This document shows, piece after piece, positions 4,166 to 63,887 of a stretch of 64,000 nucleotides of DNA. The notes under the pieces are model-generated. The model made no database searches. It saw only the letters and a program-made list of their open reading frames with translations, and was not told the origin of the DNA. Origin of the DNA: Candidatus Aenigmatarchaeota archaeon (lineage in GTDB: Archaea; Aenigmatarchaeota; Aenigmatarchaeia; CG10238-14); the NCBI GenBank assembly GCA_018920365.1, contig JAHLMM010000001.1, positions 199,628 to 263,627 on the forward strand, written 5' to 3'. A program made the translations under genes and the position numbers. Every line of letters starts with the position of its first letter. Position 1 is the first letter of the stretch.

Positions 4166-5428
4166 ATGCAAATAAAAGCAGATCTTCACCTTCATAGCAA
4201 ATATGCTAGAGCTACCAGTAAGGATATGGATATTCACAGCCTTTCTGATTATGCTAAAATTAAAGGATTGAATTTGCTCGGAACAGGTGATTTTACACAT
4301 CCTAAGCAATTAAATGATTTAAAGAAAAAACTTGAACCAATAGAAGACAAAGGATTGTACAGATATAATGATGTTTTTTTCATGTTAACAACAGAAATGG
4401 CCACTTTTTATTTTCAGGACAAAAAATCAAGAAGAGTTCATCATTTAGTTCATTCACCTAGTTTTGAAATAGTGGATCAGATAATAGATGTTTTATCAAA
4501 AAAAGGTGCAAACACAGGTATAGATGGAAGAATGATGATGAAAATATCATCTCCAGAGCTTGTAGAAATACTTCATCAAATAAGCAAGGATATACATATT
4601 ATTCCTGCACATATATGGACACCTTATTTTGGTTGTTTAGGAAGCGTGACAGGTTTTGATTCAATTAAGGATTGCTATTTAGATCAGACAAAAAATATTT
4701 TTGCTATTGAAACAGGGTTAAGCAGCGATCCTTTAATGAATTGGAGAGTTTCAGAATTGGATAATTTTGTTTTAATGTCAAACTCAGATTCACATTCACC
4801 TTGGCCTTGGAGATTGGGTAGAGAGGCAAATGTTTTTGAATTAGATGAAATGAATTATTTTGAATTATGGGATGCTATTAAAAATAAAGATAGAAGCAAG
4901 TTGCTATATACTATTGAAGTTGATCCTAATTACGGCAAGTATCACTATACAGGACATAGAAATTGCAATGTTGTAATGCATCCGAAAGAAGCGAGGAAAC
5001 AGAACAATATATGCCCTGTATGCAAAAAGCAAATGACAATAGGCGTATTGCAGAGAGTTGAAGAATTGGCTGACAGAGAAGAAGGTTTTATTCCGAAAAA
5101 TGCTGTGCCATTCAAATCTCTTCTACCTTTATATGAAATAATATCTTTTGTTAAGGGGAGCAAGCAACTTTATTCAAAAAAAATAGTTGAAGAACAGAAT
5201 AAAATAATAAATAATTTTGGCAGCGAGCTCGAAGTTTTGATTAATGCAAGTTTTGACGATTTGATCAAAGTTACTGATGAGAAAATTACCAAAGCCATAA
5301 TTGATATAAGAGAGCAAAGAATATTGTTCAAACCAGGATATGATGGCACTTATGGAGAACCAATATTTAATGGAGAAAGAAAATTAAATTTTAATAAATC
5401 ACCACAAAAAAGCTTATCAGATTTTTAG
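4166..5428 (+). CDS. PHP-family phosphoesterase with a C-terminal zinc ribbon (COG1379-like).
   Basis: N-terminal PHP motif KADLHLHSKYARATS…GLNLLGTGDFTHP. A downstream HxH/Asp-rich region follows. C-terminal CNVVMHPKE…CPVCKK is a zinc ribbon. Confidence 0.7.
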   Translation: MQIKADLHLHSKYARATSKDMDIHSLSDYAKIKGLNLLGTGDFTHPKQLNDLKKKLEPIEDKGLYRYNDVFFMLTTEMATFYFQDKKSRRVHHLVHSPSFEIVDQIIDVLSKKGANTGIDGRMMMKISSPELVEILHQISKDIHIIPAHIWTPYFGCLGSVTGFDSIKDCYLDQTKNIFAIETGLSSDPLMNWRVSELDNFVLMSNSDSHSPWPWRLGREANVFELDEMNYFELWDAIKNKDRSKLLYTIEVDPNYGKYHYTGHRNCNVVMHPKEARKQNNICPVCKKQMTIGVLQRVEELADREEGFIPKNAVPFKSLLPLYEIISFVKGSKQLYSKKIVEEQNKIINNFGSELEVLINASFDDLIKVTDEKITKAIIDIREQRILFKPGYDGTYGEPIFNGERKLNFNKSPQKSLSDF

Positions 5429-5501
5429 GGTTCGTGGTCCAGCTGGTTAAGACGCTGCCCTCACATGGCAGAAATCGCCGGTTCGAATCCGGCCGAACCC
5501 A
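5428..5501 (+). tRNA. tRNA-Val (anticodon CAC), no intron.
   Basis: Cloverleaf folded by hand. Acceptor GGGTTCG/CGAACCC. T-arm GCCGG-TTCGAAT-CCGGC. Anticodon stem CTGCC/GGCAG with loop CTCACAT. Discriminator A. It sits in a GC-rich island within an AT-rich context. Confidence 0.85.
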
Positions 5502-49205: not shown

Positions 49206-49296
49206 TAGCCCCGAGCGGATTCGAACCGCTGTCAACGGGTCCAAAGCCCGCTATCCTTGGCCATTGTCCTGGTTAAACCATCTAGACGACGGGGCT
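49206..49296 (-). tRNA. tRNA-Gln (anticodon TTG) with a ~17-nt insertion in the D-loop, a putative non-canonical intron.
   Basis: Minus-strand sequence AGCCCCG-TC-GTCT-[AGATGG TTTAACCAGGACAATGG CCAA]-GGAT-A-GCGGG-CTTTGGA-CCCGT-TGAC-AGCGG-TTCGAAT-CCGCT-CGGGGCT-A. It has the A1-U72 pair and discriminator A typical of archaeal tRNA-Gln. The total is 91 nt. Confidence 0.7.
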
Positions 49297-57304: not shown

Positions 57305-57427
57305 ATATTATTGACCCCCTGTAGCTCAACGGTAGAGCATTCGGCTGTAGGCATTTGCATATGCATTTGCCACCGGCATTTGCTCGCAGAAACCGAAGGG
57401 TTGCTGGTTCAAATCCGGCCGGGGGGA
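57305..57427 (+). tRNA. tRNA-Tyr (anticodon GTA) with a 51-nt intron at the canonical 37/38 position.
   Basis: The C1–G72 pair is the archaeal/eukaryal Tyr identity element. D-arm GCTC-AACGGTA-GAGC. Anticodon stem TTCGG/CCGAA with loop CTGTAG-[intron 57341–57391]-A. T-arm GCTGG-TTCAAAT-CCGGC. Discriminator A. Confidence 0.8.
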
Positions 57428-57504: not shown

Positions 57505-57630
57505 ATAATCACATGGTTGGCGACCAAAACGAAAAGGAAACACCCGTTCCCATTTCGAACACGGAAGTTAAGCTTTTCGGTGATTTGAGTTGTACTGCAT
57601 TCGTGCGGGAAGCTCAAGACGTTGCCAACC
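57505..57630 (+). rRNA. rrf: 5S ribosomal RNA (unlinked, standalone).
   Basis: The text GGTTGGCGACC…CACCCGTTCCCATTTCGAACACGGAAGTTAAGC…GTACTGCATTCGTGCGGGAAGC…GTTGCCAACC has the conserved archaeal 5S loop-C / helix III-IV sequence. The 5' and 3' ends are complementary (helix I). Confidence 0.85.
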
Positions 57631-57723
57631 AATTACGCTTAAACGGTGACCTATTATTGATTAAAAGAGCCCACCCCCAAAATATAAATTTTATAAAGTT
57701 CTTAAATAAAAAATCAGTTATTT

Positions 57724-57827
57724 GCTCTGGTGGTGTAGCTCGGCCTAATCATATAGAGACCAATCATACGGGACTGTCATCATATGGCAGAACTCCCGTG
57801 ACCCGGGTTCAAATCCCGGCCAGAGCG
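57724..57827 (+). tRNA. tRNA-Asp (anticodon GTC) with a 13-nt canonical-position intron and an additional ~16-nt insertion in the D-arm region.
   Basis: Acceptor GCTCTGG/CCAGAGC with discriminator G. T-arm CCGGG-TTCAAAT-CCCGG. Anticodon stem CGGGA/TCCCG with loop CTGTCA-[TCATATGGCAGAA]-C. The D region is ~19 nt too long. It contains a duplicated CC(T)AATCATA segment. The total is 104 nt. Confidence 0.7.
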
Positions 57828-57845
57828 TATACAAAAGGTGATTAA

Positions 57846-58094
57846 TTGAAAGACGAAATGAAAATAGATGTTTTATCTCATGAATTGGTACCAAAGCATT
57901 ACATTGTTTCTGAAGAGGAAAAACAAAAAATAAAAGAGAAATACAAAATAGACAAAGACAACAAATTTCCACAAATAAAAGCAAAGGATCCTGTTGTAAA
58001 AGCAATAGGCGCAAAACCCGGTGATATAATAAAAATAGTGAGAAAAAGCAATGTAGCAAAAGAAATTGTCTATTATAGAATTGTTGTGGAGTGA
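57846..58094 (+). CDS. rpoH: DNA-directed RNA polymerase subunit H (Rpb5 homolog).
   Basis: The text HELVPKHYIVSEEEK…KDPVVKAIGAKPGDIIKIVRKSNVAKEIVYYRIVV is the RpoH/Rpb5 C-terminal domain signature. It is the first gene of the rpoH-B-A operon. Confidence 0.85.
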   Translation: MKDEMKIDVLSHELVPKHYIVSEEEKQKIKEKYKIDKDNKFPQIKAKDPVVKAIGAKPGDIIKIVRKSNVAKEIVYYRIVVE

Positions 58095-58098
58095 TATT

Positions 58099-59610
58099 AT
58101 GAATGAATATATGACTTTGTTAAAATCGTTTGCACGCGACGAAGGTCTGATTAGATTTCAGATAGAATCCTACAATGACTTTATAGAAAACAGAATACCA
58201 AACATCATAAAACAAATAAAAGAAATTAAACCAGAAGTTCCTGACTTGGGAGAGTTTAGAATTAAATTAGGTAAGTTCAAAGTGGGAAAACCATTAGGTA
58301 CAGATATATGGGGTCCTTGGACGAAAGAGGCAGACGGTTCAGAAAGACCAATATTGCCTCAAGAATCGAGAATAAGAAATCTAACATATTCTGCTCCAAT
58401 GTATCTTGAAATGACACCAAACTTGAATGGTATAGATAGCGAAACAATTACAGTTAATTTTGGTGATTTGCCTGTCATGCTCAAATCAAAAATATGTCCA
58501 TTGTCGAAAATGGATAGGCAAGAGTTAATCAGAGTTGGAGAAGATCCAGATGATCCAGGAGGTTATTTTATTGTAAATGGTACAGAAAGAGTACTAGTTT
58601 TGATTGAAGAAATATCACCAAATAAAATTCTAGTCGAGTCACCAAGCACACCAAATGTAACAAACATAGCTAGAATACATTCAGAAAGAGATGGTTATAT
58701 TCAAAGACATATAATTGAAAGGAGAAACGATGGCATTATTAGAATAAATTTTGCAAATGTCAACAAAATGCCTATAGTAATTTTACTAAGGGCACTCGGA
58801 TTAGAGACAGATAAAGATATAATAACATTTTTGTCAGATGATCCAGAAGTGCAACAAGAGTTTTATCCAAATTTATTCGAGACGCAATCAGCAACATCAA
58901 AAGAAGCAATAGAAGAAATAGCAGATTTTCTAAAAATAACACAAAAAGAATATAGACAAGACAAAGTCAACAAGTTATTGGATAAATATTTGCTTCCTCA
59001 TTTAGGTCAAGATAAAAAATATAGAATAAACAAAGCATTGTATTTGGCAAAGGCAACAGAAAAAATAATTAAAAATCATCTAAAGAAAGTACCAAAGGAT
59101 GACATTGACCATTATTCGAACAAAAGATTGAAATTGTCAGGAGATTTATTGGAAATATTATTTAGATCTGTGCTGCTTGGTAAATGGGGATTGATAACTA
59201 GAATAACTTACAATTATCAAAAATTAACAAAAAGAGGAAGATTTCCACCCCTGCAATCAATAGTTGAATCAAATGTCTTGACAAATCAAATAATTTCAGC
59301 CATAGCAATAGGCTCATGGGTTGGCGGAAGGACAGGCGTTTCTCAGAGACTTGAAAGAGGAAGCTTTGTTAAAACAGTTTCTCATACAAGAAATGTATTA
59401 TCGCCGTTAACATCAACTCAAGAACACTTTGAAGCAAGAGTTTTGCATCCAACTCAATGGGGAAAAATAGATCCATCACAAACACCAGAAGGTGCAACAA
59501 TTGGGTTAAGAAAATATCTAGCTATAATGGGTCAAATAACAAAGGGTGCAACTGAAAAAGAAGTGAAAATCTTGGAAGATATTTTGTTAAAAGAGGTTGA
59601 TAAAAAATGA
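58099..59610 (+). CDS. rpoB2: DNA-directed RNA polymerase subunit B'' (N-terminal half of split subunit B).
   Basis: Begins MNEYMTLLKSFARDEGLIRFQIESYNDFIE…. It contains protrusion/lobe domain sequences. The stop overlaps the next start (ATGA). The ORF-track start at 58066 overlaps the rpoH stop. The ATG at 58099 is the more likely start. Confidence 0.85.
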   Translation: MNEYMTLLKSFARDEGLIRFQIESYNDFIENRIPNIIKQIKEIKPEVPDLGEFRIKLGKFKVGKPLGTDIWGPWTKEADGSERPILPQESRIRNLTYSAPMYLEMTPNLNGIDSETITVNFGDLPVMLKSKICPLSKMDRQELIRVGEDPDDPGGYFIVNGTERVLVLIEEISPNKILVESPSTPNVTNIARIHSERDGYIQRHIIERRNDGIIRINFANVNKMPIVILLRALGLETDKDIITFLSDDPEVQQEFYPNLFETQSATSKEAIEEIADFLKITQKEYRQDKVNKLLDKYLLPHLGQDKKYRINKALYLAKATEKIIKNHLKKVPKDDIDHYSNKRLKLSGDLLEILFRSVLLGKWGLITRITYNYQKLTKRGRFPPLQSIVESNVLTNQIISAIAIGSWVGGRTGVSQRLERGSFVKTVSHTRNVLSPLTSTQEHFEARVLHPTQWGKIDPSQTPEGATIGLRKYLAIMGQITKGATEKEVKILEDILLKEVDKK

Positions 59611-62600
59611 CTGATGTGTTTTTTGATGGAAAATATTTTGGAAGTGTTAAGGACCCGGTAAAATTAGTTAATTCAATAAGGGAAAAGAGAAGAAAAGGTC
59701 AATTGTCAGATCAGATTAATGCATCATATCTTGAACACTTTGATATAGTAATGATATCTACAGATTCTGGTAGAGCAAGAAGACCATTAATAGTAGTCGA
59801 AAACGGAAAACCAAAATTGACAAAAGAACATTTAAACATGCTTGAGAGTGGAAAGATAAAATGGAGTGATTTGATTTCTCAAGGTATAATAGAATATTTG
59901 GATGCAACTGAAGAAGAAAATGCATTGATTGCTTTAAAACCAGAAGATTTAACACAAAAACACACACATTTGGAATTAGATCCCACAATAATAATGGGTG
60001 TTGCTACATCTCTTGTTCCATTTGCAGAATTTAACAGAGGAGACAGAGTAAATTTTGGCGCAAAAATGATAGGCCAAGCGATAGGTATGTATTCAATAAA
60101 CTTTCCTGTTAGAGTTGACACAAAATCAAATATAATGATATATCCTCAAGTGCCTATTGTAAAGACACACATGAATGATATAATAAATGATCAAGATCAT
60201 CCTGGCGGTCACAATGTAGTTATTGCAATGATGCCGTTTTTGGGTTATAACATGGAGGATGCTGTTGTCATAAACAAATCATCCATTGAAAGAGGGTTGT
60301 TTTGGTCATACATGTTCAGATCATATGAAGCCGAGGAAAAAAGATATTTGGGTGGTCAAGAGGATATAATAGGAATACCTGAACCTGGAATAAGAGGTTA
60401 TGCTGGTGAAGATGCGTATAAACATTTACCAGAAGATGGTATAGTAAATCCTGAAACAAAACTCAAAAAAGAGGATGTTATAATAGGCAAATCATCACCG
60501 CTGAGATTCTTGGGTAGTTTAGATCAATTCACAACAGGCTTGGAAAATATAAGAGAAACTTCTGTTAGACTAAAACATGGAACAGAAGGTATAGTTGATA
60601 GAGTTTTTATTACAGAAAGTTTTGAAGGAAATAAACTTGTAAAAGTTGTTGTGAGAGATTTGAAAATACCTGAATTAGGAGATAAATTTGCCAGCAGACA
60701 TGGACAAAAAGGCGTTTTAGGTTTAATAATAAATCAGGAAGAATTACCATTCACAGAAGATGGTATTACACCTGACATAATTTTTAATCCTCATGGCATA
60801 CCATCTAGAATGACAATAGGGCAGATTTTAGAAATATTATCAAGCAAGGTAGGTGCTTTGACTGGTAAAAGGATAACAAGTTCTGCATTCCATCCTTTTG
60901 ATGAAAAGACAATAAGAGAAACTTTGAAAAAATATGGGTTTGATGATGATGGAAAAGAGTTTATGTATGACAGCAGAAATGGCCAAAAATTGATAAATAA
61001 AATCCTAATAGGAGAGATATATTATCAGAAACTAGATCATCTTGTTTCAAACAAAATGTATTCAAGATCAAAAGGTCCTGTGACACTTTTGACAAAACAA
61101 CCAACAGAAGGAAAATCAAAAATGGGTGGTTTGAGACTAGGTGAAATGGAAAAAGACTGTTTAATTGCACACGGTGCTTCGTTGCTTTTGAAGGAAAGAT
61201 TTGATTCAGATAAGATAATGATATCAATATGCAAAGATTGTGGTATAGAAGCTATAAATGATAGGGTTAAAAATAAAAAATTCTGCCCAATGTGTGGTGG
61301 TTCAAAGACTGTTGATATTGACATGTCATATGCTTTCAAACTTTTACTAGACGAGCTAAAAAGCATGGCAATATATCCAAAAATAATTGTTGATGAGGAT
61401 TTGGGAATTATTGATAAAATGGTGTTTGGTATATTAACACCTGAAATGATAAAGAAAATATCAGCATCAAAAATAAGTAAAACAGAATTGTATGATCAAG
61501 AAGGCTATCCTGTTGAAGGAGGCTTGATGGATCCAAGACTTGGCGTTATAGATCCTGGATTGAGATGCAGAACATGCGGTGGAACAGTTGGTGATTGCAA
61601 AGGTCATTTCGGATACCTTGAATTGACAAAACCAGTGATACATGTAAATTACGCAAAGCTAATTTACAATATTTTAAGGTTCACATGCAGAAAATGCAAC
61701 AAGGTTTTGATAAGTCCTGATGATGTTGCAAAGTTCAAAGAAGGCAAAAAGTCAATGAAGAGACTAAAGACATTCATAAAATCAACATGCCCATATTGCA
61801 AAGAAAAACAGGGTAAGATAAAATACATCAAACCTACTACATATCAGGAAGATTCTGAAATATTGACAGCAGTGCAAGTAAGAGAAAGATTGGAAAAAAT
61901 ACCTGATAGCGAGCTAGAATATTTTGGTCTTAGAAAAATGAGGCCTGAAAATTTGGTTTTAACACTACTTCCAGTTCCACCAGTAACTGTGAGACCTTCT
62001 ATAACTTTGGAAACAGGTGAAAGATCAGAAGATGATTTGACACACAAGCTTGTAGATATTGTTAGAATAAACAAAAGATTGAGGGAAAATATAGAGTTGG
62101 GTGCACCTGATTTTATAATACAAGATTTATGGGAGCTTTTACAATATCACGTTGCAACTTATATGAATAATGAAATAACGGGCGTACCACCAGCTAGACA
62201 TAGATCAGGAAGAGTTTTGAAGACATTGGCACAAAGATTAAAGACAAAAGAAGGAAGATTTAGAAGCAATTTGATTGGTAAGAGAGTTAACTTTTCTGCA
62301 AGAACAGTTGTTAGCCCAGATCCATTTTTAGATATAAATGAGGTAGGCGTACCATTATCAGTTGCAACAGAATTGACCTTACCAGTTGTTGTAAATGAAA
62401 AGAATATTGAAAAGATAAGGCAGATGATAGAGAGATATCCAGAATGGCCAACAATAAATTATGTAAATAGACCAGATGGAAGAAGAAAGAAAGTCACAGA
62501 ATTGAACAAAGCTGATATAGCAAAAGAAATAGAACCTGGTTATATTGTTGAAAAACAGATAGAGAATGGCGATTGGGCAGTTTTCAATAGACAGCCATCA

Positions 62601-63887
62601 TTACACAGGATGAGCATGATGGGCCATAAGGTAAGAGTAATGCCTTATAATACATTTAGACTGAATTTATCGGTTGCACCGCCTTATAATGCAGATTTTG
62701 ATGGAGATGAGATGAACCTTCACATACCTCAAACAAAAGAGGCTCAAGTTGAAACAAAAATGCTTACAGAAGTTTCGACACAATTTAGAAGCCCAAGATT
62801 TAGTAGTGTTATAATAGGTGCAATAAATGATCATATAACAGGCTTGTACATACTGACAACAAAAATGAAGTTTTCAAGAAAAGATACAGTCTCTATTGTA
62901 AAGGCATGTGATCCAGAAATTCAAGTTCCTGACAAAAAAGAATTTACAGGAAAGGAAATATTCAGCTTATTCTTGCCAAAAGATTTTGATTTTGAATATT
63001 CAAAAGGAGATTTGAAAGTTGTGATAGAAAACGGTCAACTAGTAGAAGGAATAATCGATGAAAACGGTTTGGGTGCATTTAAAGGAAAACTGCTTGATGA
63101 AATTGAGAGAAGATATGGTGGTGAATTTACAAGGAAGTTGCTCTTTAACATGACAAAACTTTCTCTTGAAGTGTTGATGAGATATGGCTTTACTACTTCA
63201 ATATCTGATTATGACATTGATGAGAAGATAGTAAAACAAATAAATGATTTGCTTGAAAATGCAAAGAAAGAGATAAATGACATGATAAAAGATTTCAAAA
63301 AAGGCAAGATAAAAGAAATAGTAGGAAGAACAAAGAGAGAGACATTTGAAACATTGGTTAAAATAAAATTGGCTGATTTGCTAAATCAGATAACAACACT
63401 TGTCGCAAAGAACATAAAAGAGAATTCAATTTACATAATGGCTAAAAGTGGTGCTAGAGGCAGTCTAGTTAACATGGTTCAGTGCATTGCATGCCTTGGT
63501 CAAGAAACAATTAGAGGTGAAAGAATAAGGATAGGTTATTATAAAAGAACTTTGCCTCATTTTGAAAAAGGTGATATGAGTTTAGAATCAAGAGGTTTTG
63601 TTAGACACGGCTATAAAAATGGTTTGACACCGTTTGAATTTTTCTTTGATGCAATGAACAGTAGAGAAGGTCTTATGGATAAATCTTTAAAGACAAGACA
63701 TAGTGGTTATCTTGAAAGAAGATTGATAGGTGCATTAAAAGATTTGAAAGTAGAGTACGATGGTACTGTAAGAGATGCTTCAAAGAAAATTGTTCAGTTT
63801 ATTGCTGCTGAAGATGGTTTAGACCCATCGAGAATACAAAAAGGTGGTATAGATGTCGGAAAAATCGCTGAAAGATTATTTGGATGA
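59607..63887 (+). CDS. rpoB1-rpoA1: In-frame fusion of RNA polymerase subunit B' (residues 1–604) and subunit A' (from M605). It encodes a single 1426-aa polypeptide.
   Basis: The B' portion ends …MSYAFKLLLDELKSMAIYPKIIVDEDLGIIDK. The frame runs directly into MVFGILTPEMIKK…GGLMDPRLGVIDPGLRCRTCGG…GHFGYLELTKPVIHV, the canonical A' N-terminus with its Zn-binding motif. No stop codon lies between them. The A' catalytic NADFDGDEM motif is present. The ORF ends …AERLFG-TGA. Confidence 0.85.
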   Translation: MTDVFFDGKYFGSVKDPVKLVNSIREKRRKGQLSDQINASYLEHFDIVMISTDSGRARRPLIVVENGKPKLTKEHLNMLESGKIKWSDLISQGIIEYLDATEEENALIALKPEDLTQKHTHLELDPTIIMGVATSLVPFAEFNRGDRVNFGAKMIGQAIGMYSINFPVRVDTKSNIMIYPQVPIVKTHMNDIINDQDHPGGHNVVIAMMPFLGYNMEDAVVINKSSIERGLFWSYMFRSYEAEEKRYLGGQEDIIGIPEPGIRGYAGEDAYKHLPEDGIVNPETKLKKEDVIIGKSSPLRFLGSLDQFTTGLENIRETSVRLKHGTEGIVDRVFITESFEGNKLVKVVVRDLKIPELGDKFASRHGQKGVLGLIINQEELPFTEDGITPDIIFNPHGIPSRMTIGQILEILSSKVGALTGKRITSSAFHPFDEKTIRETLKKYGFDDDGKEFMYDSRNGQKLINKILIGEIYYQKLDHLVSNKMYSRSKGPVTLLTKQPTEGKSKMGGLRLGEMEKDCLIAHGASLLLKERFDSDKIMISICKDCGIEAINDRVKNKKFCPMCGGSKTVDIDMSYAFKLLLDELKSMAIYPKIIVDEDLGIIDKMVFGILTPEMIKKISASKISKTELYDQEGYPVEGGLMDPRLGVIDPGLRCRTCGGTVGDCKGHFGYLELTKPVIHVNYAKLIYNILRFTCRKCNKVLISPDDVAKFKEGKKSMKRLKTFIKSTCPYCKEKQGKIKYIKPTTYQEDSEILTAVQVRERLEKIPDSELEYFGLRKMRPENLVLTLLPVPPVTVRPSITLETGERSEDDLTHKLVDIVRINKRLRENIELGAPDFIIQDLWELLQYHVATYMNNEITGVPPARHRSGRVLKTLAQRLKTKEGRFRSNLIGKRVNFSARTVVSPDPFLDINEVGVPLSVATELTLPVVVNEKNIEKIRQMIERYPEWPTINYVNRPDGRRKKVTELNKADIAKEIEPGYIVEKQIENGDWAVFNRQPSLHRMSMMGHKVRVMPYNTFRLNLSVAPPYNADFDGDEMNLHIPQTKEAQVETKMLTEVSTQFRSPRFSSVIIGAINDHITGLYILTTKMKFSRKDTVSIVKACDPEIQVPDKKEFTGKEIFSLFLPKDFDFEYSKGDLKVVIENGQLVEGIIDENGLGAFKGKLLDEIERRYGGEFTRKLLFNMTKLSLEVLMRYGFTTSISDYDIDEKIVKQINDLLENAKKEINDMIKDFKKGKIKEIVGRTKRETFETLVKIKLADLLNQITTLVAKNIKENSIYIMAKSGARGSLVNMVQCIACLGQETIRGERIRIGYYKRTLPHFEKGDMSLESRGFVRHGYKNGLTPFEFFFDAMNSREGLMDKSLKTRHSGYLERRLIGALKDLKVEYDGTVRDASKKIVQFIAAEDGLDPSRIQKGGIDVGKIAERLFG

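Follow-up and report, generated by a model that had tools for sequence, protein, structure and literature searches.

Several introns in one transfer RNA (tRNA) gene, or introns outside the canonical site, have been amply described for Thermoproteales, Nanoarchaeota, ARMAN and Methanopyrus kandleri, and the principle is not new. The closest described case is the pre-tRNA-Glu(UUC) of M. kandleri, where a canonical intron at position 37/38 is combined with a D-loop intron at 20b/21 that has a relaxed (HBh') motif of bulge-helix-bulge (BHB) type, and whose mature form was detected by RNA-seq (Kaneta et al. 2018, PMC5829648). We analysed a stretch of 64,000 nt from the genome of a Candidatus Aenigmatarchaeota archaeon (contig JAHLMM010000001.1; hereafter the window), a member of the DPANN superphylum, in which positions 57724-57827 of the forward strand very probably hold a functional tRNA-Asp(GUC) gene interrupted by two short BHB introns.

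The likeness to the tRNA-Glu of M. kandleri is close. In that tRNA, as in the predicted tRNA-Asp precursor, a canonical intron is accompanied by a second one within the 3' portion of the D-loop, at a site that is identical or adjacent, and each D-loop intron has a relaxed motif of HBh' type. The two cases differ in the tRNA concerned (Glu versus Asp) and in lineage (Euryarchaeota versus DPANN Aenigmatarchaeota); moreover, the predicted canonical-position intron of the tRNA-Asp gene, 13 nt in length, is also relaxed, its inner helix being all but absent. The pre-tRNA-Thr2(UGU) of Aeropyrum pernix has a D-loop BHB intron as well, and from this precursor the (alpha-beta)2 splicing endonuclease EndA alone removes the intron in vitro, more slowly than from the anticodon loop (PMC3241643), but that intron has a full BHB, is the sole one of its gene and belongs to a crenarchaeon whose EndA has a Crenarchaea-specific loop. 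Within DPANN, the pre-tRNA-Cys(GCA) of ARMAN-2 (Micrarchaeota) has a 13-nt hBH or bulge-helix-loop (BHL) intron that is cut by an epsilon2 EndA (PMC3239211). It resembles the anticodon intron of the tRNA-Asp gene in being a relaxed 13-nt intron with one splice site in a loop, whereas its position is 59/60 in the T-loop, not 37/38, and no D-loop intron was described with it. In Thermoproteales, a tRNA gene can hold as many as three BHB introns, with 20/21 and 22/23 among the non-canonical sites (Sugahara et al. 2008; PMC4090602); these genes belong to another superphylum, and many of their introns are related in sequence and were apparently transposed among tRNAs. Site 21/22, which concerns us below, is missing from the intron-site list in PMC4090602, a list that is non-exhaustive and ends in 'etc.'. 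In the literature searched, no description of tRNA genes with a canonical and a D-loop intron in Aenigmatarchaeota turned up.

The gene comprises 104 nt including the discriminator G73 at 57827, encodes no CCA, and reads GCUCUGG UG GUGU AGCUCGGCCUA (AUCAUAUAGAGACCAA) UCAU A CGGGA CUGUCA (UCAUAUGGCAGAA) C UCCCG UGAC CCGGG UUCAAAU CCCGG CCAGAGC G, with the predicted introns in parentheses. The acceptor stem GCUCUGG/CCAGAGC, the anticodon stem CGGGA/UCCCG and the T arm CCGGG-UUCAAAU-CCCGG are intact, and deletion of both inserts leaves a tRNA of 75 nt that ARAGORN types as tRNA-Asp(gtc), the identity that the initial annotation had proposed. The joined exons form a cloverleaf with a 7-bp acceptor stem, D, anticodon and T arms, and GUC at positions 34-36. 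The window sequence by itself does not fix where exactly the D insert begins and ends. The identity of the tRNA is secure, because every doubly spliced variant, made by removing the 13 nt together with 15-18 nt of the D region in various ways, was typed tRNA-Asp(gtc). A G73 discriminator, C38 and a G10·U25 pair are typical of tRNA-Asp; here a G occupies 57827, a C occupies 57793, and G10 (57733) faces U25 (57767) once the gene is spliced. The exons are also nearly identical to those of an intron-less tRNA-Asp in a related locus (L096).

In the anticodon loop, CUGUCA is followed by the 13 nt UCAUAUGGCAGAA (57780-57792) and then by C. We scanned for BHB motifs with a geometry in which an outer helix leads through a 4-bp helix and a 3-nt bulge into an inner helix, and back via the 4-bp helix and a second 3-nt bulge. 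The scan found a central helix with 4/4 pairs, CUGU (57774-57777; C32-U35) with GCAG (57787-57790), and the bulges CA/U (57778-57780; C36 A37/U) and AA/C (57791-57793), the slash marking the cut. Cleavage after the second base of each bulge would take out 13 nt and leave the 7-nt loop CUGUCAC, which bears out the mini-intron at 37/38 suggested earlier. The outer helix has 7 bp, the 5-bp anticodon stem plus two more pairs, while the inner helix consists, in the window gene and in all orthologs, of at most one C-G pair closing a tetraloop; of the two flanking helices of at least 2 bp that make up a strict hBHBh' motif, only the outer is present. We classify this insert as a predicted intron at the canonical position whose motif is relaxed and hBH/BHL-like. 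Each of the 10 orthologs having the intron preserves this motif, and in one of them (L084) GCAG has become ACAG, a one-sided change that turns the U-G pair into U-A.

The second insert lies in the D region, where 36 nt (local positions 10-45 of the gene) separate position 9 from the anticodon stem. This count, given in the initial annotation, is exact. In a normal archaeal tRNA-Asp, a D arm of this type measures 20 nt, made up of 17 numbered positions and 17a, 20a and 20b, where the initial annotation had put the usual length at 17. Against 20 nt, the surplus is 16 nt. These 16 nt can be arranged as a 4-bp helix with two 3-nt bulges, GGCC pairing with GACC, with one C·A mismatch at the third pair in the window. 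The inner helix is 2-3 bp long and the outer helix is not continuous, which falls short of a strict hBHBh' motif, and we interpret the insert as a predicted relaxed HBh' BHB intron of 16 nt at position 21/22. A strict BHB scan (4/4 central pairs) returned no D-region intron of 15-18 nt because the third central pair of the window is C·A; the motif became visible once orthologs showed the same position to be paired elsewhere. With cuts after the second bulge base, the rule that restores the 7-nt anticodon loop, the junction becomes ...GGCCUA/UCAUA..., between A21 and U22, and a cut at 20b/21 would yield the same product, since an A precedes both cuts. Excision of both inserts would restore a canonical tRNA with the loop CUGUCAC and the D arm GUGU-AGCUCGGCCUA-UCAU, the form found in intron-less orthologs.

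Three other pairings in this region were considered and set aside. An 18-nt intron (local positions 21-38; GCUC/GAGA; product AGCUCGGAA) has a helix paired at 3/4 positions, without flanking pairs, is unconserved, and gives a product unlike the intron-less orthologs. A helix between the D-stem GUGU and AUAU, of the kind seen in tRNA-Gln, would yield a product that drops G18 and G19, and the pairing is unconserved. Pairing between the two introns (UCAUAU/AUAUGG) is unique to the window, and the corresponding excision would delete the anticodon.

The D-loop motif rests mainly on its recurrence in related genomes. Orthologs were taken from the regions upstream of rpoB''/rpoH in related genomes and from contigs with RpoH homologues (loci are labelled L), and a metagenome pattern scan for tRNA-Asp exons with an over-long D region gave 6 matches, all of the interrupted type. 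In all, 11 further distinct interrupted versions were obtained (L001-L003, L081-L086, L088 and L092), most of them situated between 5S rRNA and rpoH/rpoB''. The D insert is present in 11/11, with GGYC ... GRCY AAU in the same register, and a hand alignment gives the pattern GUGU AG YY(Y) / GGYC / YAA / UCN - loop - NGA / GRCY / AAU / CAU A CGGGA. This upholds the earlier suggestion that the D-region surplus is a second intron. The third central pair, mismatched in the window, is C-G in L003, L081, L085 and L092, U-A in L083 and U-G in L082, and in these six versions the central helix is fully paired; the first central pair is G-C, with G-U in L003 and L092. Minimum free energy (MFE) folds contain the helix-bulge-helix in the L003, L081 and L082 precursors.

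A MAFFT alignment of the full precursors misplaced the gaps in L003, L081 and L085, and pair counts were made on the hand alignment and on a trimmed ungapped alignment, for which three sequences each lost one unpaired loop base and which does not include L088 and L092. In the trimmed alignment 88.9% of the cells are standard pairs, as against 30-51% with the partners slid by 1-3 columns. Its third central pair is C-G in three versions, U-A in one, U-G in one and C·A in four, and the third inner pair forms in 6/9 distinct versions (U-A three times, A-U twice, C-G once). The covariation score of the D-loop motif (0.159) was reached in 16/500 shuffles, and for every ortholog no more than 0.5% of the trials with shuffled introns produced a motif as good as the observed one and correctly placed in register. 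We regard the covariation as giving modest but consistent support to the predicted motif.

Syntenic tRNA-Asp genes without the D insert supply a direct reference for the predicted product. Two of them (L027, L036) read GUGUAGCCCGGCCUAUCAUACGGGA and two others (L010, L014) read ...GGCCUAUCAUA; in all four, GGCCUA stands immediately 5' of UCAUA, as in the predicted product GGCCUA/UCAUACGGGA. The comparison with tRNA-Asp of related archaea that the initial annotation proposed as a check therefore favours the splicing prediction, the predicted D arm being equal to that of these four genes. Fully intron-less tRNA-Asp genes (L096-L098) read ...AGCGGCCUA GGAU, matching GGCCUA/GGAU. One of these loci (L096; 628-758, 1036-1108) encodes an RpoH that is 59% identical and has the order tRNA - 5S - tRNA-Asp - rpoH; its intron-less tRNA-Asp(GUC) reaches 60.8 bits in Rfam, is typed as tRNA-Asp by ARAGORN, and provides the no-intron reference state. 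No tRNA-Asp was found upstream of rpoH in two further Aenigmatarchaeota/Micrarchaeota loci (L005, L006).

Exons and introns have evolved very differently. Exon identity is 94% over all 12 sequences and 99% inside the window clade, as compared with 76-79% for the D intron, 70% for the anticodon intron and 37% for the unpaired loop columns of the D intron, and the exon differences are compensatory (acceptor pairs 3-70 and 5-68; T-stem CC/GG to AG/CU). In the two most divergent versions, L081 (87-178) and L085 (207-298), the acceptor and T stems differ, rpoB'' follows tRNA-Asp directly without rpoH, and the D-loop intron is present without the anticodon intron. This last point indicates that the two introns are independent. 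The anticodon intron without the D-loop intron was seen in no sequence of the set, and since the D-loop intron occurs alone in L081 and L085 while the reverse pattern was unseen, it may be the older of the two. The 12 distinct orthologs with both introns or the D intron only, together with the syntenic genes with none, make up a small, clean system for studying the order and mode of BHB intron gain. Two single-base differences between otherwise identical genes, each of which breaks a stem pair, were also recorded: at L082 position 516 a T stands at tRNA position 1 (U1·C72), where L090 has a G, and L094 has a C to A change relative to L093 in the first T-stem pair. Both could be population variants or assembly errors.

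Exon conservation with compensatory changes, set against intron drift and the independence of the two introns, argues against two other explanations of the locus. According to the first, a pseudogene in decay or the scar of a local duplication occupies the locus while the real tRNA-Asp is encoded elsewhere in the genome; this view could draw on the failure of standard finders to call the gene and on a survey limited to the window. Exons that are this similar in 12 distinct sequences, with compensated acceptor and T stems next to drifting intron loops, speak against decay, and the 5S - tRNA-Asp - rpoH/rpoB position is common to uninterrupted tRNA-Asp genes of other archaea; we consider a pseudogene extremely unlikely. 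The second explanation keeps the 16 extra bases in a mature tRNA with an enlarged D arm, for which unusual D arms in DPANN tRNAs, such as ARMAN-2 tRNA-Pro (PMC3239211), offer a parallel. The insert, however, sits between A21 and the 3' strand of the D stem and would break up both this stem and the tertiary core; what selection keeps is precisely a helix-bulge motif of splice-competent geometry and not a particular sequence, and the closest precedent, the tRNA-Glu of M. kandleri, is spliced in vivo. Retention, too, appears very unlikely.

Several points weigh against a functional gene with two spliced introns and have to be set beside this evidence. Both splicing and the exact junctions are inferred from sequence, and the covariation comes from few, related sequences, with two-sided changes in two pairs only. 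The D-loop motif of the window itself has the C·A mismatch in its central helix and an inner helix of 2 bp, and 5-6 unpaired bases of the 5' strand, facing bulge 2, separate the D stem from the central helix. The MFE fold of the window precursor is without the D-loop BHB; RNAalifold recovered only the anticodon BHB from the full precursor alignment, and did not recover the D-loop BHB from the hand alignment. Orthologs that have a U at the first bulge base allow another helix, GGCCU/AGGCC, of 5 bp and with the bulge AAU, which would lead to GGCCUAAUCAUA. The survey of tRNA genes covered the window, and a second tRNA-Asp gene elsewhere is possible. Finally, neither EndA nor RtcB was found in Pfam scans of 39 open reading frames (ORFs) of the window or in PDB searches of 3 unannotated ORFs.

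The alternative 5-bp helix bears on the origin that the initial annotation had proposed for the D insert, namely insertion with a target-site-like duplication. The near-duplicate behind that proposal is real, consisting of CCTAATCATA (57744-57753) and CCAATCATA (57760-57768). Under it, an element of about 15-16 nt would have been inserted, and splicing would leave one CC(U)AAUCAUA copy in a D arm reading GGCCUAAUCAUA or GGCCAAUCAUA; ARAGORN types both products as tRNA-Asp, and the MFE fold of L081 does use a 5-bp helix. We nevertheless find this origin improbable. Manual checking and the scan gave no BHB with a 4-bp helix for a 15-nt deletion or for deletion of local positions 23-38, and in L003, L082 and L092 the first bulge base is C, which makes the fifth pair of GGCCU/AGGCC impossible. 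Intron-less orthologs read GGCCUAUCAUA, not GGCCUAAUCAUA or GGCCAAUCAUA, and the repeat is unconserved past AAUC. Its copies are, in addition, offset by one base from the predicted splice sites, unlike those of a true target-site duplication, and the insert, at 16-17 nt, has no coding capacity, so that the locus does not look like that of a mobile element.

The near-duplicate is instead probably mainly a reflection of the pseudo-twofold symmetry of the predicted BHB. The part of the repeat that recurs in both copies across lineages is GRYC(Y)AAUC only, and about half of it is forced by pairing to GGCC: this central strand is a palindrome, and both helix strands therefore read alike as GRYC. 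Its AA falls within the two bulges, and its UC begins the inner helix in one copy but corresponds, in the other, to the D-stem bases U22-C23. Only the window and some close relatives have the AUA extension, its place being taken elsewhere by CAUU, UUGA, ACCA, UUUU or UGAA. One speculative possibility, which we hold to be doubtful, is that the D-loop intron arose in place by a short tandem duplication of the D-loop/D-stem segment GGCCUAUCAU(A), the palindromic GGCC copies then pairing into a pseudo-symmetric BHB that EndA can cleave; if so, the near-duplicate would be a relic of the birth of a BHB intron.

For the predicted two-intron gene, maturation would proceed from a precursor transcribed as one 104-nt body. 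EndA would recognise both BHB motifs independently and cut at 57747/57748, 57763/57764, 57779/57780 and 57792/57793, after which an RtcB-type ligase would join the three exons; CCA would be added post-transcriptionally, since none is encoded. There is no indication that either intron has a function beyond being spliced. Relaxed motifs require endonucleases with added specificity loops, and DPANN enzymes often have an "L3" loop (PMC5829648, PMC3241643). As both motifs are relaxed, and conserved as such (HBh' in the D-loop, hBH at 37/38), the EndA of this lineage of Aenigmatarchaeota should have a broad substrate specificity.

A practical difficulty is that unspliced or singly spliced forms of the tRNA are missed or mis-typed by ARAGORN. 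The gene is unreported by ARAGORN in default mode and by the Rfam tRNA model at the gathering threshold, and a permissive Rfam search of the region returned the T arm only. The covariance-model search offered no convincing single-intron or intron-less cloverleaf at the locus; such a cloverleaf would, according to the initial annotation, have refuted its reading. In its intron mode (-i), ARAGORN proposes a tRNA-Met(CAU) that has a long variable arm and is interrupted at 32/33 by a single intron of 22 nt. Apart from this output, nothing recommends the model: its D stem has one Watson-Crick pair, there is no BHB at the proposed junctions, and the perfect CGGGA/UCCCG anticodon arm is turned into intron and variable arm. 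Comparison with orthologs already refutes it, its CAU being situated in a variable part of the D intron and missing from L082, L084 and L085, and we rejected this call as almost certainly wrong. An antisense C/D-box small RNA was likewise discarded; the weak Rfam match to sR24 (E = 3.3) rests on UGAUGA, unique to the anticodon intron of the window.

Relatives with a single intron fare little better. Rfam matches L081 and L085 only partially (32-35 bits), and ARAGORN calls the former tRNA-Gly(gcc). For annotation, this means that an apparently essential tRNA-Asp is invisible to ARAGORN and Rfam, and that its single-intron relatives are mis-typed or barely detected. Kaneta et al. 2018 (PMC5829648) suggested hidden disrupted tRNA genes as the reason why the predicted tRNA sets of certain DPANN and Asgard lineages are incomplete, and the tRNA-Asp gene is a gene of the kind suggested there. 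The predicted features of the gene, and the other tRNA genes of the window, are collected in the table below.

Table. Predicted parts of the tRNA-Asp(GUC) gene and other tRNA genes in the window (window coordinates; slashes in bulges mark predicted cuts).
Feature	Position	Strand	Description
Exon 1	57724-57747	+	tRNA positions 1-21: acceptor 5' strand, U8 G9, D-stem GUGU, D-loop AGCUCGGCCUA
D-loop intron (predicted)	57748-57763	+	16 nt, AUCAUAUAGAGACCAA, tRNA position 21/22
Exon 2	57764-57779	+	Positions 22-37: D-stem UCAU, A26, CGGGA, CUGUCA; anticodon GUC 57776-57778
Anticodon-loop intron (predicted)	57780-57792	+	13 nt, UCAUAUGGCAGAA, canonical 37/38
Exon 3	57793-57827	+	Positions 38-73: C38, anticodon-stem 3' strand, variable loop UGAC, T arm, acceptor 3' strand, G73
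D-loop BHB central helix, 5' strand GGCC	57742-57745	+	Pairs with 57758-57761
D-loop BHB central helix, 3' strand GACC	57758-57761	+	From ortholog layout and pairing counts
D-loop BHB bulge 1, UA/A	57746-57748	+	Predicted 5' cut after 57747
D-loop BHB bulge 2, AA/U	57762-57764	+	Predicted 3' cut after 57763; AAU invariant in all orthologs
D-loop BHB inner helix h' and loop	57749-57757	+	U57749-A57757 and C57750-G57756 around AUAUA
tRNA-Val(CAC)	5428-5501		No intron
tRNA-Tyr(GUA)	57315-57427	+	41-nt canonical 37/38 intron, 57351-57391
tRNA-Gln(UUG)	49206-49296	-	18-nt D-loop intron, 49264-49281, at 15/16

The tRNA genes of the window were located by T arms with matching acceptor stems, which gave four. 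Two of the four, tRNA-Asp and tRNA-Gln, have a D-region intron, in line with the suggestion that such introns recur in this genome, though the sample is small. The tRNA-Gln intron has a full hBHBh' motif, with the helix GUCU/GGAC, the bulges AG/A and AA/U, the inner helix UGGU/ACCA and a 3-bp outer helix, and splicing would give a normal 73-nt tRNA with the D-loop AGUGGCCAA. This gene, too, is missed by ARAGORN in default mode, and Rfam gives a truncated match without the D arm (49206-49262, 29.5 bits). No clear sequence relationship was seen between the D-loop introns of tRNA-Asp and tRNA-Gln. In the intron of tRNA-Tyr, GCATTTGC is present three times, and L001-L003 have tRNA-Tyr genes with similar introns in which the repeat copies vary.

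The tRNA-Asp gene lies between the 5S rRNA gene upstream (57516-57630, 83.7 bits; 93 nt away) and rpoH downstream (57858-58094, Pfam RNA_pol_Rpb5_C; 30 nt away), followed by rpoB'', in a window with a G+C content of about 30%. The closest relatives in the genome collection are metagenome-assembled genomes (MAGs) labelled Candidatus Aenigmatarchaeota, with RpoB'' 97%, 88% and 85% identical, and the source names of related MAGs suggest that the host is a hot-spring archaeon. The 30 nt between tRNA-Asp and rpoH (57828-57857) contain no T-rich terminator-like run and include a GGTGAT motif resembling a ribosome-binding site; possibly the tRNA shares a transcript with the RNA polymerase operon, or else rpoH has a promoter that overlaps the tRNA gene.

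In the spacer between 5S rRNA and tRNA-Asp, a conserved element, GGUGA...UAUUGAUU(G/A)AAA...CACC, was observed at about 57644-57679 (+). Its possible closing stem co-varies, being GGUG/CACC in the window clade and GGGUGG/CCACCC in L081/L085, and in L092 the element contains a perfect C-box-like GUGAUGA. Nothing in Rfam matched it, and RNAalifold, applied to a poor alignment, returned no result; the element may represent a small RNA of the k-turn or C/D-like kind, or else a signal for processing. Further downstream, a single ORF of 1426 aa (59607-63887, +) encodes B' (Pfam Rpb2 domains 4-7) fused to A' (Rpb1 domains 1-5), whereas B'' is encoded upstream by a gene of its own (503 aa). In L002 and L003, rpoB'' is followed by ORFs of 1426 and 1427 aa, matched by size, and the fusion therefore looks like a real one in this clade rather than an assembly error.

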